DNA of 64,000 nucleotides, taken from assembly GCF_045037415.1 (NCBI RefSeq), contig NZ_CP173440.1; one strand, given 5' to 3'. The position numbers were made by a program, and so were the translations under genes. This document shows, one piece after another, positions 22,891-56,220 of the stretch (position 1 is its first letter; each line of letters opens with the position of its first letter). This DNA comes from Escherichia coli. Its GTDB lineage: Bacteria > Pseudomonadota > Gammaproteobacteria > Enterobacterales > Enterobacteriaceae. The notes under the pieces are model-generated. The model saw only the letters and a program-made list of their open reading frames with translations, searched no databases and was not told where the DNA came from.

Positions 22891-23815
22891 TTTTACTTCC
22901 TTTCCAGTGAATACGGGCAACGGCATTATGGGGATGCAGGCTTTCCTGATGTTCAACCCTGATATCAAATGCTTCACAAAAGGGTGCACAACGAAAAACG
23001 TTATTGAGCCGACGGGCAGCATCTTCGCAAAACATCAGATTCTGACCGTTAGCCACCGCAAAAGCCTGTTCGTCGCTCCGCTTGACAACCGTTTGCACGG
23101 CTGTCCCGAGAGCAACTTCAGCATAATCAATCAGTTCAATCACAGGCAGTGATTTTGCTTCAGGATTAAGACGGATACTCACCCATGCCCAGCTTCGCTG
23201 GCTGTGCGGGGTTGCCGGCATTCCTTTCTCAACAAGCCAGTCGGCTATTTCTGCTGCCGGGAGCCTGTCGATCCTGTTACCAAAGTCTTTGCTAAACTGC
23301 AAACCCGCGACGTGGCGGCTAAGTGCAGCGGAAGCCGGGCAGGTGGACGAATAAGGGATACCCACTTTGAGGGTAACCGTAAAAGATTGCCTGAGTTCGG
23401 CGCTCAGAGTCAGAGGATAAGCTTTCCAGCCGGAGTGATTAGAATTTAACGACTTACGCGACAGTAACAAATCCCCTGAAATCTCAATACTGGCTTCATC
23501 ACTACGTCCCTGATGAGATACCAGAAATGCTTTCAACACATGTTGCAATAATGCCGGTGTGATTTCCCCTTGTGTCAGTTCGTCCAGAAGAAGATAAAGA
23601 CGAGACATATGGATCCCCTTTTCAGCTTCAGGTGAACTGAGAAGGTTTATGCCAGCATTGACCTTTGCTGATACCGGCCTGCCTGCGATGTCTATCGGCA
23701 GGTCAATTTGTTCCATGCCAACCCAGGATAATGACTCGCCCTCACCGTCACCCTTAGTGGACTGAATATCCGGTAGCATTCCGGGGCATAAGGTTTGTTT
23801 GGCTGCAATACTCAT
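22880..23815 (-). CDS. folE2: GTP cyclohydrolase FolE2-like (type IB)
   Basis: LPDIQ… and GIHMSRLY motifs resemble the FolE2/MptA family. Confidence 0.5.
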   Translation of the reverse strand: MSIAAKQTLCPGMLPDIQSTKGDGEGESLSWVGMEQIDLPIDIAGRPVSAKVNAGINLLSSPEAEKGIHMSRLYLLLDELTQGEITPALLQHVLKAFLVSHQGRSDEASIEISGDLLLSRKSLNSNHSGWKAYPLTLSAELRQSFTVTLKVGIPYSSTCPASAALSRHVAGLQFSKDFGNRIDRLPAAEIADWLVEKGMPATPHSQRSWAWVSIRLNPEAKSLPVIELIDYAEVALGTAVQTVVKRSDEQAFAVANGQNLMFCEDAARRLNNVFRCAPFCEAFDIRVEHQESLHPHNAVARIHWKGSKNVT

Positions 23816-30713: not shown

Positions 30714-31937
30714 TCATTCTTCGAACCAGGGCTCAACAGGATCGGAATAATGCCGCCACTTTTGAGGCCCTTCTGCCATTTCTGCATCCGTTAACAGGGC
30801 GGAATCCAGTCTGTTGCGCAGTTCTGATTCATTCATATCCATTCCAATAAAAACGAGTTCCTGACGGGCATCACCAATGCCATCTATCCAGTTAGACATG
30901 ATGAACTTCAGTGACTCAGCATCCTCTGGCCAACGTCCTTTCGGCACACTAGCCCACCACATGCCCCCCAGCCCCTGGCGCGCAATGCCACCTGCCTGCG
31001 ACCATGAACCTGCGAATTCCGGACGGCTGGCCAGCCAGAAGTAACCTTTTGATCTGACGACTCCATCCAGCTCATTTTCCATCACCTGCCAGAAACGGGT
31101 CGGATGAAAAGGCCGGCGGGCGCGAAAGACAAAGCTGGTGATCCCATATTCTTCTGTCTCCGGCGTATGTTCGCCCCGGAGTTCTTTAAGCCAGCCGGGT
31201 GCCTGAGCGGCCTGCTCGAAATCAAACAGCCCGGTATTAAGTATGTTGCCCAGCGGAACCTGTCCAAACTGTGAAACAACGATTCTGGCCCGTGGATTAA
31301 GCGAACGTAAAATCGCCATCAGTTTTTCTTTTTGCGCTTCACTGATAAGGTCAACTTTATTAAGGACCAGCACATCACAGAATTCAATCTGATCGATCAG
31401 CAAGTCAACAACGCTCCTTTCATCACCTTCACCTAACGATTCTCCGCGTGACTGAATGCTGTCTTCCGAACCGTAGTCTTTCAGAAAATTGTACGCATCC
31501 ACCACAGTGACCATGGTGTCAAGGCGGGCCACCGTCGAAAGGCTTTCACCGTCATCGCCCGCAAAGGTAAATGTTTCAGCAACAGGCAGAGGCTCAGATA
31601 TACCGGTGGACTCAATGACAAGCTGATCAAAACGCCCTTCTTTTGCCAGACGATTAACTTCGAGAAGAAGATCTTCGCGCAATGTGCAGCAAATGCAACC
31701 GTTGCTCATTTCTACCAGTTTTTCATCAGTCCGGGAGAGTTCTGCACCACCTTCCCTCACAAGGGCAGCATCAATATTCACCTCAGACATATCATTAACA
31801 ATGACAGCAACACGACGGCCTTCCCGGTTGTTCAGAATATGGTTAAGCAGTGTCGTTTTCCCTGCTCCCAAAAATCCCGAAAGTACGGTAACCGGCAGGC
31901 GTTTATCGCCATGAAAATTTGCACTGACTTCGGACAT
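30714..31937 (-). CDS. COG0523 GTPase with canonical CxCC motif
   Basis: P-loop [11 protein letters not shown] and GCICCTL metal motif, followed by a CobW_C-like C-terminal domain. Confidence 0.8.
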
Positions 31938-31973
31938 TACCTTACATCTCCTCAGATATTCGTTGTGTTCGGA

Positions 31974-32381
31974 TTAACCAGGATCGTTGAGCACGGTTAG
32001 CTCATCGCCTTTAATGGCGTTGTAAAAACAACTCCGCCGACCTGTGTGGCAGGCTCCACCTTTTTGATCCACTAGCAGTAGCACCGCATCTCCGTCACAA
32101 TCCAGACGGATATCATGTACTTGCTGAACGCAGCCGGAGGTCTCACCTTTTCGCCAAAGGCATGATCGGGATCGCGACCAGTAACAGGCTCTGCCAGTCA
32201 ATAAGGTTTCATCAAGAGCCTGTTGATTCATCCAGGCAAGCATCAACACCTCTCCAGTGTCATATTGCTGTGCAATCGCAGCGATCAAACCATGAGAATC
32301 CCAGGGTATTGACGGCAGGATATCCTCAAGCTGAAACACTGCTCCTGCATGGGCTTTTTCCAGTAACAGAAACATTGGCAC
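31974..32381 (-). CDS. hisI: phosphoribosyl-AMP cyclohydrolase paralog (HisI-like)
   Basis: 135 aa with HisI-like core (…WSRSRS…[28 protein letters not shown]); Cys/His ligand positions appear retained. Confidence 0.65.
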
Positions 32382-32393
32382 CCCACCTTTTTG

Positions 32394-47994: not shown

Positions 47995-48177
47995 CCGGAT
48001 GTTTATCATTGGTTGTCTCTGGGTGATAATCATAAAATGTGAGTTGAGGGTGAAATCACAACGATTTTGAAAATTTACTTTCAAAGTATTTGTTACTTTA
48101 TTAACTACATGCTATTGTGTCAATGTATATGAAAATTATTGCCAGAGGTGAATGACAACGCATCTCAGCTCAGTAAA

Positions 48178-48186
48178 GGGGGGGGG
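48178..48186. repeat. G9 homopolymer immediately 5' of an ATG
   Basis: GGGGGGGGG directly precedes the ATG at 48187. Confidence 0.9.
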
Positions 48187-49136
48187 ATGTCGACTGTTAA
48201 TGATGTGATTATATCTTTTGGGGATGACAGTAAAAGGTACTCAAGAGACTTCCAGACAAAAGACGAATTTAAAAAGAGCTGGTACGCAGTTTTGTCCCGG
48301 GCGCATGCTTCTGTAGAAGCTAAGGTTAGCTGCTCGTGTAAAGGCAAAGGACAGAAATCACTTTCCGTAAAATATAACTCTGGCGGTGATACTTATTTCT
48401 TGGCACGGTACCCAAATACGGGTAGTCAACATTCTCCCGACTCATGTATTTAATTGTAGGTGCATACCCTTCAACACCTCAGGTGATGAAAAATATAAAA
48501 ATGACATCAGATGCTCTGAAGAAAAAGGAGAGTTTGATTTGTCTCAATGTTCTATCGAAATACAACCCTGAAAAACATTCGAATACATCAAAACGACTTC
48601 CTGTCAAGTTCTTTTCTGGTGTTCTGATCGTGCTGATGAATACTGATAACTGGGCATCACTGGAGAAGAGATTCAGCTCTGAAATAGCAAATTGGCGTTC
48701 AGGAGGCAACGTCATCTGTATTGCTATAGGCGAGCTAGGTAAATTTAAGGGGAATGATATATACTATCTTAAAACACTTCAGATTGCTTTGATGAATGTT
48801 GATGATAACTAGATCCCGGCAGACTCGAGCTATGAACTGACCATGCTAAATTATCTTCATAAGCATGAGCGATCATTTATAAAACCTCTGAGATATGATG
48901 CTTCTAATAATGATGTATTCCCGGATTTCTGCCTGACGGATATAGGGAGTACTGAACTTTTTCCTATTGAGGTATTTGGTATGGATACTGCTTCATATTT
49001 GGCACGTAAGGTGATCAAAGAAAGTTACTATAATGAACGATATGGAAAGGATGGTTGGGCTTCATGGGAAGCACCGGCTGGCCCCCTCCCCATCTGCCCG
49101 ATAAGGCCAGCAGTTAACTACCAAATGCTTCTGTAA
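48187..49136 (+). pseudogene. possible single gene broken by one frameshift and one in-frame stop
   Basis: ORF 48139..48453 is in frame 1; ORFs 48444..48812 and 48843..49136 are both in frame 3, separated by a TAG at 48813. Confidence 0.25.
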
Positions 49137-49732: not shown

Positions 49733-50521
49733 AACCTGGGCGGAAACCACTCGAAAAGTAACTTTTGGACAGATTTAGAAGCCGGTTACCCCCACTATTG
49801 TTATTAACATAATATTAACACAAGGAATAATCGTTATTATTCGAACTGTAACTAGGATGTTGCATACCTCTTGAAGCGATGAAAATATGAGCATATTTCT
49901 CATTATTCCTGAATCCATACATTTTTATTGTTTTTATAGCGACATATTGAAACTCTGTTTTATTTAATAAGTATCAATTTTATAATCAATTTCTGTTATT
50001 TTATCGCTATTGACATTTACTATTGTGACTATATCCAATGATATTAGATCACTTACATCTGAAAGTGACAGTGTCACGGATTGTGCACCCAGAGAGACCC
50101 TTTTCGTGAAAAAAGTAGTTCACTCCCATAACGAAACGTGGGCTTCTTTTTTGCAGATCGTATGTGGATGTCTTCAGGTAGCAGGAAGGAAAGTGATGCA
50201 GGCATGAAAGGATGACAAACCGGCAAAGGGGCTGCTACTGCTCCATATTCAACAAACCACCCCTGGTTAGTTGAATCCTTTGCCGGTTTTCCTGACAATA
50301 CCAGACAGGTAAACTTTTTCCATCAGATTTTCTCGTCAACATGTTGCATTCATAGTTTTTCCATAATTGGATGCTTTTGCAGGACAACTACGGTTTTTAT
50401 CCTTTCGTGCCCGGTAAAAAAAATAGTTAAATAGCGATTTCACCCTTTTAAAGGAAAAATTGTCCTCAGGCTCACAGTACTATAAAAGTATCAATAATCA
50501 GGAGCCGGTAATGACTCCAAC

Positions 50522-51025
50522 TTATTGATAGTGTTTTATGTTCAGATAATGCCCGATGACTTTGTCATGCAGCTCCACCGATTTTGAGAACGACAGCGAC
50601 TTCCGTCCCAGCCGTGCCAGGTGCTGCCTCAGATTCAGGTTAAGCCGCTCAATTCGCTGCGTATATCGCTTGCTGATTACGTGCAGCTTTCCCTTCAGGC
50701 GGGATTCATACAGCGGCCAGCCATCCGTCATCCATATCACCACGTCAAAGGGTGACAGCAGGCTCATAAGACGCCCCAGCGTCGCCATAGTGCGTTCACC
50801 GAATACGTGCGCAACAACCGTCTTCCGGAGCCTGTCATACGCGTAAAACAGCCAGCGCTGGCGCGATTTAGCCCCGACATAGCCCCACTGTTCGTCCATT
50901 TCCGCGCAGACGATGACGTCACTGCCCGGCTGTATGCGCGAGGTTACCGACTGCGGCCTGAGTTTTTTAAGTGACGTAAAATCGTGTTGAGGCCAACGCC
51001 CATAATGCGGGCGGTTGCCCGACAT
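50522..51025 (-). CDS. insB: IS1 InsB
   Basis: 167-aa product matches IS1 InsB. Confidence 0.9.
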
Positions 51026-51219
51026 CCAACGCCATTCATGGCCATATCAATGATTTTCTGGTGCGTACCGGGCTGAGAAGCGGTGTAAGTGAACTGCAGT
51101 TGCCATGTTTTACGGCAGTGAGAGCAGAGATAGCGCTGATGTCCGGCAGTGCTTTTGCCGTTACGCACCACCCCGTCAGTAGCTGAACAGGAGGGACAGC
51201 TGATAGAAACAGAAGCCAC
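50944..51219 (-). CDS. insA: IS1 InsA
   Basis: 91-aa product matches IS1 InsA (…[32 protein letters not shown]…). Confidence 0.9.
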
Positions 51220-51252
51220 TGGAGCACCTCAAAAACACCATCATACACTAAA

Positions 51253-51843
51253 TCAGTAAGTTGGCAGCATCACCAACCTTATGTACCTTTTGCAGCCAAA
51301 TTTTCTTGTTATTTTGCTTTGGTAGCATGATAGCATTTTTTCTTCAATTTTTAGTTGACTTTTTATTTCATTAATGCCCCCATTTTTCAGTAGGCATTGC
51401 AGCACTGCTTGTTCCTTTTTTGTTAGCCGTGGATAATGGTTTACAATTCGGCTAACATTTTTCTTTAAGAATGCAAAATATAGTTTTTCAATATTATTTT
51501 TTACATTTCCTTGCATGTTAACATAGATGTCATAATCACACCCTTTAGGATAAAACCGCCCCCCCCCCGAAACGTCAAGCCACATCCATTGGCTTATCAT
51601 ATTTAATGATCCCCTTAACATTTTGTACCCTCCCCATTTCCCTGAATAAAAAATCCTGCTGTCAACCAATACTCTTATGTTTCTTTTGTGCTTAATTGCT
51701 ATTGATTTATTAACTACTCCTTCATATGTAATATGAAACAGAGGTAGTCCAGTTAACTGCTTTAGGCCATAATAAAAAAAATAATCATCAGTCAACACTA
51801 TGTTTACATCCTTGTTACATATAAAGTAAATATATTTTTCCAT
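51253..51843 (-). CDS. LuxR-type HTH regulator, 3' end fused to the IS1 terminus, with internal G10 tract
   Basis: C-terminal LuxR-like HTH (LTKKEQAVLQCLLKNG…KITRKFG). The last ~7 codons come from IS1. The C10 run at 51559-51568 encodes GGG within the ORF. Confidence 0.45.
   Translation of the reverse strand: MEKYIYFICNKDVNIVLTDDYFFYYGLKQLTGLPLFHITYEGVVNKSIAIKHKRNIRVLVDSRIFYSGKWGGYKMLRGSLNMISQWMWLDVSGGGRFYPKGCDYDIYVNMQGNVKNNIEKLYFAFLKKNVSRIVNHYPRLTKKEQAVLQCLLKNGGINEIKSQLKIEEKMLSCYQSKITRKFGCKRYIRLVMLPTY
51559..51568. repeat. C10 homopolymer (G10 on the coding strand) inside the LuxR-type ORF
   Basis: Ten consecutive C at 51559-51568. Confidence 0.9.
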
Positions 51844-52376
51844 AGAAACAGTAACTTTGATCCATCAATATTCATCCAAAAATATTTTATAAGCATTAAA
51901 AAAAAAAACAACAGAGAATCATTTCTCTTGAAAGTCGTTGGTTACAATTTTTAATGAATAAAAATTCAATCAATCACGGTAAATAGTCATTTTTTTTGTC
52001 TTTGCGTGTTTGCAATTAATTGATCTTTTTTTTTAACCCGCCCCCCTTTATTTTGTCAGTTTGCTTAATAATTCACGATTAAAGATGTGTGGGGAGGGGC
52101 GAGTTTAGGACTTATTTTAAAATCCTTATCAAATAAATACTTTCGCAAAAAACAATTCGCTTAGTAATACTGTCTGTTTCTATAATAACCATGGTAATTA
52201 GATTTCTGAAAAATATGTTCAGATTACCACTAGTGTAACAGTTGGTGCTTGGGAGTTATTTGGCGATTGATCCGACCACATGATCCAGGCTAAATACCCT
52301 CAAAGTAAATTAATATATTGTTCTCCTTGATATCCGGCCCATTTTTTGATTTAATTTCAAATGATAACTGTATAAG

Positions 52377-53039
52377 GTGCAATCAATGAGTAATACTGAT
52401 AACGGGACGAAGATCTACACTCCATTAACTCTGAAACTATATGACTGGTGGGTGCTTTGCATTTCGAATAGTTACGCATGGAATTGTTCAACAAAGGATA
52501 TTTTAATTCCTTATTTTTTACAAAACTTAAGTCCTAACCACCTAGATATTGGCGTTGGTACTGGTTATTATCTCACTAAAATCCCTGCTCACTATAATAT
52601 ATCCCTCATGGATCTTAACCCTGCCAGCTTGAAAGCTGCATCGGCAAGAGTAGGGGAAGATAGAATACACTATAAAGTTAGGCATGATGTATTTGAATCT
52701 TACCCAGAGGAACTTCATGGAAAATTTGATTCCATATCAATGTATTACCTCATCCATTGTCTACCAGGAACAATGGAAGATAAAAGAATTGTCATAAAAA
52801 ACGCGAAGGCCGCCTTAACTAAAGGTGGAATACTTTACGGAGCAACCATACTTGGTGATAAGGTAAGGCATAATAGTTTTGCGTTAAAACTGTTGCAAAT
52901 TTATAACAAAAAAGGTATTTTTTCTAATTTTAGTGATTCAGAAGAAGAACTAAAAAAAATGCTTTCTCATTATTTTAAAAATATTGATGTCATTGTGAAA
53001 GGTGCTGTCGCAATGTTCTCTGCGCATGGAAAAAAATAG
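52377..53039 (+). CDS. class I SAM-dependent methyltransferase
   Basis: DIGVGTGYY (motif I). Paralog of the ORF at 61472..62179. Confidence 0.55.
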   Translation: MQSMSNTDNGTKIYTPLTLKLYDWWVLCISNSYAWNCSTKDILIPYFLQNLSPNHLDIGVGTGYYLTKIPAHYNISLMDLNPASLKAASARVGEDRIHYKVRHDVFESYPEELHGKFDSISMYYLIHCLPGTMEDKRIVIKNAKAALTKGGILYGATILGDKVRHNSFALKLLQIYNKKGIFSNFSDSEEELKKMLSHYFKNIDVIVKGAVAMFSAHGKK

Positions 53040-53399
53040 CTATTTATCATTTTTTCCTGGATTTATCTTTTTTAAAAACACCTTGTGAACTGATCCCATA
53101 GTTTATATTAAGCGACTAACAGGGCTTGGGTTCGGTCCTCTACCGGACTCAGGCCTTTTTGTTTTATTCTTTCATGGTTGTAATAGTGGATGTACTCATC
53201 TATAGCCATGCGCAACTAGCTGATATTCTTATGTTCCTTCAGGTAAAAACATTCAATCTTTAGCGTACCGAAGAAGCTTTCCATTACTGCATTGTCGTGA
53301 CATTTTCTCTTTCTTGACATGCTCTGTTTCAGGCCGCTGCCCTTAAGTCGCTTCTGATAATACGCCATCTGGTAGTGCATCTAATTAGTAGAACATGTA

Positions 53400-54110
53400 T
53401 TTTTCAATGAAGGCCCCGATGACTTTTTCATGCAGCTCAACAGAGCGTGAGAAACAGACGGTCGGCGAGCCAGGCGTTTGATTCGGGTTCTCAGCGTCAG
53501 ATTGTTTCGCTCAATGCGCTGAGTAGAGATTTTGCCGGTCAGATGCTTATCCTTCGGCACCTCTCTGGCGTAACTTCCCAGTCATCGCTGGTTATTATGC
53601 TGATATTAAACGGTGTGAGCAGAGCCAGCAGCGCACTGCAGGTTGCATCGGTCCGTGGCCCAAAAGTATAGGCCAGCACACCACCTGTTTTCGTGTTGTA
53701 CGCGTACCAGAGCCAGTGCTACCGGGCTTTGCTGCCGACCTCCATTGCTCGTGGAGTTCGCAGATGAGCGCCACATCGGCATGAGCAACCGGAGATGTGG
53801 TTACTCGTCGTGGCGCGAGTTTTTTAAAGTGCGAATAACGGTGTTAATGCCGATTTTGAGTGTCCTTGCGGTATCACAGACGCCGGCTCCGTTGAATGCC
53901 ATTTCGGTAATTTTCTCTTTGACGCCGTGCTTGCGTGCTTCATAAGTATAAGTGAGCAGAAACACGCGGTAGCAATCGCGGCAGCGAAACCGGTCACGGC
54001 CTTTAGGGCTCTGCCTGTGGCGGAAAACTTGGTCAGACTGACAACGGGGGCAATGAACGGTAACGCTGGTCATGAACAAACCTCAAAAGCACGCATCATA
54101 CATCAATTCA
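53400..54110 (-). mobile_element. degraded IS1-family element (divergent isoform) next to an IS3-family fragment
   Basis: InsA-like ORF 53801..54079 (…CPRCQSDQVFRHRQSPKGRDRFRCRDC…); InsB-like region 53430-53800 is frameshifted; IS3-type OrfB piece at 53200-53400. Confidence 0.55.
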
Positions 54111-54221: not shown

Positions 54222-55651
54222 CTATTTAATAATTTCTGACAGGGCCTGACCTGCTTTCTGAATATAAACTGGTTGCGAGACCTCACCCAGCTGATTGGCA
54301 ACCATCCGGGTTTCATAATGACTGGCAGTTAATACCAGAGCTGGCCCGTGAATACAGGACAGTTGTTCAACTACTGCCTTTAACCATTGACCTGAAAATA
54401 TCTGTTCTTTCGGGTCATCGAACACCTTTGGAAAATCAGCACCGGCGATGGTCAGCTTCATTGAGCCATAGACGTCTGGGGAGAATATTTTCCTGATTGA
54501 AATCGTATCGCTGGTTAACCCCAGAGCTTTACATAACCACTCCATTCCGGTCTCTGGGGTACTGGTAATAGAGAGGGTAGCCGACGTCAGTAACGCACTA
54601 CGCCACTGAGTGCAGTATCTGCCCACATTCATCCCGATAAACGGGTTTACAGCGATCAGGGCTGGTTCACGACGTTTATTGGAAACGCCTACGCCCTTTT
54701 GCCCCCGGACAATCCGAGCATATCCCTGCTGTAGATACAGTCAAAGAAAGCTTTCCGGGCCGCTTCATTTTTTATTTTCCGCCCTACCTTTGATAAGGCG
54801 TTAAAGCTATTGTCAAACAAGGCAACCGCTGCAGGCGTACTACAAAAATGCAGATCGCCCGCTATCGAAGTCACGTCGTTCATTAACTGGTCGATGACAT
54901 GCACGCCATTACGTGGAATATGTTCATTGAACGCACTAGTCAACTCTCTGAGGTTGAAGCGCCGCTGTTTCCAGACCTCAAGCATATCTACAAAAATGTC
55001 TGCCTCATCAATAATGAGGTACATATTTTCTTTGTCACCGAGGATGCGGTGATTACACATACAGTCGACCATTACCATCGCATGGGTCGTAACAATAAAG
55101 TTAGCACTGAGAGCATTCAGGCGAATATCATCAATGTCCTGTATATCATCCCAGATGGAGTAGGTGACCATCTCTGGCGTGATCTGCGCTGGCAGTTCAC
55201 CATACTCTTCTTCAAACTCAACCAGAGGTTTTGACCAGTTAGCGAGTTTTTCAAGGACCTTAACCGTATCCAGATCGGTAAATTCGTCCATGAGTAACAG
55301 TCCACGTACTTTCTCCAGGGATACGTAATTTACTTTCCCCATAAGCCGGGAAAAAGTAACTTTTATGCCGCATTGTTCAGCTATCTGTTCAAGGAGAGGA
55401 CGATCGCTTCTGAATATCTGGTGCATCAGTGCATGAGAATTCGTGGCAATCACAAATTTTGCCTCAGGGTTTTTCAGCAGAATCAGAAGCGCCGGTACCA
55501 GATAGCCCAGCGTTTTTCCTACACCTGTTTCAGCACTAATCAGTGCAACTTTATGATCCTGAGTCAGTGCACCAGCTGCAGCCTCGATATAATCCTGTTG
55601 GACCTTACGTAACGACAATCCGGCAGACTCAAATACCGCTGATGTATTCAT
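54222..55651 (-). pseudogene. DinG/Rad3-like SF2 helicase, frameshifted and C-terminally truncated
   Basis: Walker A ETGVGKT and LIIDEAD in ORF 54689..55684; LLTSATLS in ORF 54222..54632 in a different frame. The gene ends against IS-derived DNA. Confidence 0.5.
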
Positions 55652-55653
55652 GA

Positions 55654-56220
55654 CTACTGCCCCGCCAGATGCATGAAACCGCAACCAAATACGCGTTTAG
55701 GGCCTACGCCATAAACGATTCCCACTTCAGCTTCCTGTTGATTGCTGATTATGGCGGTACCCTGTACCGTGAATACGGGTAGCGTAAAACCACGTCCAGC
55801 ATTTCCTTTGTCGATATGGACGAATTTCGGGCCACTGACGACGATTTGACCGGGTTTAAACCCAGCCTTCGCTAATTTGGTGAGGGCCAACTGATAACTA
55901 GCCTCTTCAGATGGAGCAAACTGGCGTCGGCCACGGCCTTCTGACTTTGTTCCTTTATGAAAGATGGCCATTAACGTAATGAACTTGATTTCATGGCCCT
56001 CAGAGAGAATAAGCTCTCTTTTTTTCTCCCCAGGCAACTCCAGAGCTGTAGCTGTGCGGACCAGGAGTAACGAATCATCCCCGGTACCGGGAAAAATTTT
56101 AAAAGAGTACGGCAGCTTCTCTCCCTTACGTTCCTGCATGAAAAAATCCAGGTGCTGGTGGATCTGGTAAACACTTGTGTGACGGATACGCAACCGAAAC
56201 GCATTATCGTAGTAAATCAT
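55654..56220 (-). CDS. hypothetical protein, translationally coupled upstream of the helicase gene
   Basis: 188-aa ORF; stop overlaps the probable helicase start (ATGA). Confidence 0.35.
   Translation of the reverse strand: MIYYDNAFRLRIRHTSVYQIHQHLDFFMQERKGEKLPYSFKIFPGTGDDSLLLVRTATALELPGEKKRELILSEGHEIKFITLMAIFHKGTKSEGRGRRQFAPSEEASYQLALTKLAKAGFKPGQIVVSGPKFVHIDKGNAGRGFTLPVFTVQGTAIISNQQEAEVGIVYGVGPKRVFGCGFMHLAGQ

Follow-up and report, generated by a model that had tools for sequence, protein, structure and literature searches.

An ON-length poly-G tract in an IS1-truncated and probably disconnected copy of rmpA

We analyzed a 64,000-nucleotide stretch of DNA (hereafter the window) that carries ten consecutive G residues inside the gene of a LuxR-type regulator (positions 51559-51568; read directly as C10 on the + strand and thus G10 on the coding (-) strand). 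The run is very probably the known poly-G repeat of rmpA in a decaying and disconnected copy, in which tract length no longer controls phenotype from the locus. The tract itself has ON length, and the switch appears to have been disconnected by an IS1 truncation of rmpA together with a 20.35-kb deletion.

By its sequence, the gene is rmpA (regulator of mucoid phenotype A) of a KpVP-1-type Klebsiella pneumoniae virulence plasmid, rmp1 lineage. A megablast search with the ORF and its upstream region returned 640 plasmid records (606 from Klebsiella) with the annotation "rmpA: mucoid phenotype regulator RmpA", and the ORF carries the rmpA annotation in more than 400 plasmids. Between 58000 and 51275, a stretch of 6.7 kb that includes the upstream SAM-methyltransferase gene, the window was 99.94% identical to pK2044 (NC_006625). 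All retained rmpA bases (569/569) aligned to pK2044 rmpA at 99.8% identity with one SNP. Relative to pK2044 RmpA, codon 170 is changed from ACG to ATG at base 51335 (T170M), which alters the Thr of the 'EKT' motif at the start of the helix-turn-helix (HTH) recognition helix. A Pfam GerE domain (PF00196, LuxR-type HTH) was detected at residues 140-191 (E = 8e-6). The NCBIfam match to EvgA was discarded as sub-threshold (23 bits; cutoff, 251) and shows no more than a LuxR-type C-terminus.

The tract (51559..51568, - strand) corresponds to nucleotides 276-285 of rmpA, a position that agrees with PMC11984045 and 10.1101/2025.09.12.675794. The codons across it, TCG GGG GGG GGG CGG, encode S92-G93-G94-G95-R96, so that the homopolymer supplies part of S92 and all of G93-G95. 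Because pK2044 rmpA has G10 at the identical position and its product is the complete 210-aa protein, the in-frame (ON) length must be G10. The run is real and beyond chance: it is the sole G10/C10 run in the window, where 0.03 such runs are expected (100 dinucleotide-preserving shuffles), and the expectation from the 33% G+C of rmpA itself is ~1e-4. A terminator-like hairpin called at 51574..51557 by the consensus promoter scan was rejected as an artefact that arises where the G run pairs with some bases beside it. The gene also holds a T8 tract (51774..51781, - strand; rmpA nucleotides 63-70), listed as a secondary homopolymer in 10.1101/2025.09.12.675794.

Slipped-strand switching at the rmpA poly-G tract is already known and established, and its reversibility comes from the literature. 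Reversible ON/OFF switching of intact rmpA, with G10 as the ON length, was described for strains SGH10 and SB4538 by colony fragment analysis, Percoll separation, complementation, and reversion experiments (10.1101/2025.09.12.675794). In the same study, a single overnight culture yielded poly-G indels that abolished mucoidy and reduced capsule, the phenotype returned when the indels reverted to G10, and G10 was the commonest length in every rmp lineage. The tract is likewise well documented in PMC11984045. In silico, shortening the tract to G9 or lengthening it to G11 gave products of 113 and 99 aa, both lacking the HTH domain, and the rmpA frame was restored at G7 and G13.

Tract length varied correspondingly among public records. 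Probes of 89-91 nt with exact lengths of G9, G10, or G11, for which only perfect matches reach ≥99% identity, identified G10 in 357 PLSDB records, G9 in 20, and G11 in 16. A further ~42 rmpA-type records (the difference between 435 at ≥95% identity and the 393 exact matches) have either SNPs in the flanks or tracts of another length. In an exact lookup among ~15 billion proteins, the 210-aa ON protein was present on at least 999 contigs as the T170 allele and on 974 as the M170 allele, full-length M170 RmpA being itself very common. The same lookup found the G11 product on 31 contigs, the G13 product on 17, the G9 product on 12, the G7 product on three, the G8 product on two, and the G12 product on one. 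Part of this public variation could be homopolymer sequencing error.

Taken to its limit, that concern would make the run a fixed string of three GGG codons for a Gly3 linker that is not hypermutable at all, with the variation arising entirely from sequencing or assembly. The tract does encode a Gly3 linker joining two domains, homopolymer length errors are common in long-read assemblies, and G10 strongly dominates the exact-flank PLSDB records (~91%, with ~9% out of frame). We nevertheless regard this reading as highly improbable. Colony fragment-size analysis, complementation, and reversion to G10 have been published (10.1101/2025.09.12.675794), and indels at the tract recur across lineages (10.1101/2025.09.12.675794, PMC11984045). 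Codon choice argues in the same direction: of the four glycine codons, only GGG appears here, three times in succession and G-flanked, in a gene of 33% G+C.

An initial annotation, made from the letters of the window and a list of its ORFs, had placed the G10 run inside a LuxR-type regulator ORF and proposed it as a slipped-strand frameshift switch, to be checked by comparing tract length among isolates. The placement is confirmed, as the ORF at 51843..51253 (- strand) is rmpA and its GerE domain is present. For rmpA the switch is also borne out, both by the length polymorphism, which the comparison among isolates revealed (G10, G9, and G11 in PLSDB), and by published reversible switching. In the window, the tract should still be prone to slippage in a mechanical sense, judging from its sequence.

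The product of this copy is, however, not RmpA at full length. A complete, IS1A-like IS1 of 768 bp lies at 50507..51274 (- strand, in the same orientation as rmpA; insA 51219..50944, insB' 51025..50522), and its inverted repeat ends at 51274, abutting rmpA directly after codon 189. IS1 thereby replaces the last 21 codons of the gene. The truncated ORF (51253..51843, - strand) is native in codons 1-189, down to base 51275, and then continues into IS1 for LVMLPTY and a stop, so that the product has 196 aa (189 native plus seven IS1-encoded residues) rather than 210. Across the junction (...GGTACATAAGGTT|GGTGATGCT), the chimera ends ...KRYIR|LVMLPTY*, where native RmpA would read ...KRYIR|FMYLYSLNKEMVDERWLMPSI. 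The exact 196-aa chimera occurs on three public contigs and is named 'mucoid phenotype regulator RmpA' there (P0004). The IS1 junction was found both on the T170 allele (P0006) and on the M170 allele (P0004).

The truncation falls inside the DNA-binding domain. Native sequence ends at residue 189, equivalent to position 52 of the 57-position Pfam GerE model, which leaves the domain incomplete. RmpA residues 137-186 align to residues 9-58 of GerE (1FSE), which puts the cut at about GerE residue 61, early in the fourth and last helix of the domain in the 1FSE structure. An AF2 model of native RmpA contains a helix at 185-196, which is a weak hint only, as the model is single-sequence and of low confidence (mean pLDDT 37). 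Still present in the chimera are the N-terminal domain, the glycine linker, and HTH helices one to three, with the recognition helix among them. From the loss of the remainder, we infer that the 196-aa chimera has lost function.

The sequence beyond IS1 is also rearranged. No target-site duplication was found flanking the element at 50507-51274, and its far (right) flank, GGCTCCTGATTA, is identical to that beside the IS1 resident in pK2044 (31621-32388). Bases 11270-31620 of pK2044 (20,351 bp) are absent from the window, with the breakpoint at this resident IS1. The missing stretch holds the rmpA 3' end, rmpD, rmpC, peg-344, iroBCDN, fecIRA-region genes, and a RES/Xre toxin-antitoxin pair. Accordingly, rmpD and rmpC are absent from their place immediately downstream of rmpA, leaving it outside an rmpADC operon. 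By blastn, rmpD, rmpC, peg-344, iroN, and rmpA2 had no match anywhere in the 64-kb window, the absence of the first four being due to the 20,351-bp deletion relative to pK2044. The arrangement possibly arose through an IS1A adjacent deletion, or in two steps, with an IS1A insertion and then recombination between IS1A copies; both routes yield the same, indistinguishable product.

Only three PLSDB records carried IS1 at the rmpA 3' end. NZ_CP072997 (p1878-217k, Zhejiang; L010), the closest relative, shares the junction and the deletion of the window, but has the T170 allele and a T10 promoter tract. In CP139220 (pARLG-7683-1, USA; L008), a different IS1 isoform is inserted at exactly the same nucleotide with a 9-bp duplication (CATAAGGTT), and rmpD and rmpC are kept; its IS1 region spans 1846-2623, for which the window counterpart is 50507-51283. 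A simple insertion of the pARLG-7683-1 kind, followed by recombination, was considered as the ancestor of the window's arrangement and rejected, as the isoforms differ by 97 mismatches and at base 10 of the inverted repeat. The third record, CP032834 (pINF237_01-VP, Australia; L009), belongs to a divergent rmp lineage and carries IS1 12 bp further 3', a G11 tract, and a T9 promoter tract. Dismissing its G11 as assembly noise was rejected, since SNPs occur throughout this divergent lineage, and the G11 is probably real. The rmpA 3' end has thus been struck by IS1 in at least three configurations. It may be an insertion hot spot for IS1 that offers an irreversible route to OFF.

The consequences of tract slippage can be set out for both contexts. 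In intact loci, slipped-strand mispairing during replication turns G10 (ON, 210 aa) into G9 or G11 (OFF, 113 or 99 aa) and back, the OFF products being predicted to lack the DNA-binding domain. Tract length then toggles RmpA-dependent transcription of rmpADC and, through it, the hypermucoviscosity conferred by RmpD and the capsule overexpression conferred by RmpC. RmpA phenotypes have been attributed to activation of its own operon, with expression of rmpD and rmpC credited for them and direct cps regulation by RmpA judged unlikely (Walker et al., 10.1101/2020.01.08.899096). Since RmpA activates its own rmpADC operon and both rmpD and rmpC are deleted, slippage in the window would have no local output. 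Products below 95% of full length are coded OFF in 10.1101/2025.09.12.675794, and by this >95%-of-length criterion the window allele would count as OFF whatever its tract length. We infer that tract switching here has no phenotype; the tract in this orphaned copy is most likely functionally inert.

Two further points of the initial annotation can be judged on this basis. Its statement that IS1 has altered the 3' end of the regulator proved correct. Its suggestion that the regulator may be phase-variable stands as far as the mutability of the tract is concerned; phenotypic switching is unlikely here, with RmpA truncated and rmpD and rmpC deleted. The annotation had also named a dead pseudogene as the finding that would speak against the switch, and this copy largely is one, having lost its last 21 residues, most of its last HTH helix, and its rmpD and rmpC neighbors.

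A rival explanation starts from the regulator remaining active despite the truncation. Its promoter, at least, retains the active form. The T11 tract of the rmp promoter (51898..51908, - strand; -64 to -54 relative to the rmpA ATG), whose surroundings were missed by the consensus promoter scan, matches the form reported as active (P11T, with P10T weak; PMC13274134). Judging from this T11 form, the truncated rmpA may still be transcribed. Promoter tracts differed among the copies compared, with T11 in the window, pK2044, and L007, T10 in p1878-217k, T12 in L006, and T9 in pINF237_01-VP. If the truncated RmpA were active, G10 would be a working phase switch acting in trans on rmpA2-rmpD2 or on cps promoters. 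Besides the T11 tract, this scenario could draw on the retained recognition helix and N-terminal domain, and on the hydrophobic IS1-encoded LVML, which stands in for native FMYL, so that some DNA binding may persist; even so, the last GerE-type helix is cut after about four residues and the 21-residue C-terminus is lost. A target in trans is conceivable, as p1878-217k carries rmpA2 (22941-23576; G11 in frame, 212 aa) followed by a small rmpD2-like ORF, ~18 kb beyond the window edge. This rmpA2 is itself intact, however, and would not need RmpA. An A9 run also lies inside it, at 23285-23293. Among the five IS1-disrupted copies examined, four (window, L002, L006/L007, and L008) have kept G10, which would fit a switch still in use, but these are few, recent, and closely related copies, and retention in them is explicable without selection. 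Given that the literature treats a product shorter than 95% of full length as OFF, and given the crediting of RmpA phenotypes to rmpD and rmpC rather than to direct cps regulation, we consider an active truncated RmpA unlikely. Retained activity through which G10 slippage phase-varies rmpA2-rmpD2 in trans is a shade less likely still, though it would imply a two-tract, combinatorial control of mucoidy in convergent ST11-type plasmids even after the loss of rmpDC. We therefore retain the reading of a disconnected rmpA copy, and the functional mucoidy switch in the p1878-217k lineage is probably the rmpA2 locus rather than rmpA.

The surroundings of the gene show further signs of decay and repeat content. 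A DUF1173 gene that is broken into fragments (ORFs 48139-48453, 48444-48812, and 48843-49136) has a G9 run on the + strand (48178-48186) at its 5' end; in pK2044 and p1878-217k, the first DUF1173 fragment is annotated as starting directly after this run. The pseudogenised gene could hold a further tract prone to slippage. Upstream of rmpA, type I-E CRISPR-Cas remnants at ~54689-56220 (- strand) adjoin an IS5 and comprise Cas6e/CasE and a DEAD/DEAH helicase fragment according to the pK2044 annotation. Between rmpA and these remnants, a cluster of decayed transposase ORFs (53108-54079, - strand) includes a divergent IS1-family InsA-like ORF (53801-54079), InsB-like pieces (53381-53679), and IS3-like fragments (53108-53380). 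One base that pK2044 and p1878-217k both have is missing from the window at 53078, 39 nt downstream of where the SAM-dependent methyltransferase gene (52386-53039) stops.

The state of this copy bears on how rmpA is read in genotyping. The rmpA poly-G tract is clinically relevant as the switch for the hypermucoid capsule in hypervirulent K. pneumoniae, and frameshifts in it are already among the features that genotyping tools flag. With rmpA truncated and rmpD, rmpC, and iro lost, a G10 "ON" state combined with an "rmpA-positive" call would overstate the virulence potential here. Mucoidy conferred by the plasmid lineage of the window would rest on a separate rmpA2-rmpD2 locus outside it.

Among known systems, the closest is the tract of K. 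pneumoniae rmpADC (KpVP-1/rmp1; pK2044, pLVPK), which is the same gene and matches in tract position (nt 276-285), in the modal ON length of G10, and in the flanks. Unlike in intact rmpADC, the rmpA of the window is cut after codon 189, and rmpD, rmpC, peg-344, and iro are deleted. The paralogue rmpA2, located next to iuc and absent from the window, likewise encodes a regulator of the LuxR type and has a poly-G run of its own at the corresponding site, but its in-frame length is G11 rather than the G10 of rmpA; rmpA2 was truncated in 745 of 849 public genomes (PMC11984045). The contingency loci of Neisseria, Haemophilus, and Campylobacter differ in their targets, which are surface-structure enzymes or adhesins rather than a plasmid transcriptional activator, here one without downstream output. 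The rmpA tract nonetheless resembles them in being an in-frame mononucleotide run of at least nine bases, in which a +/-1 frameshift truncates the product and length is naturally polymorphic.
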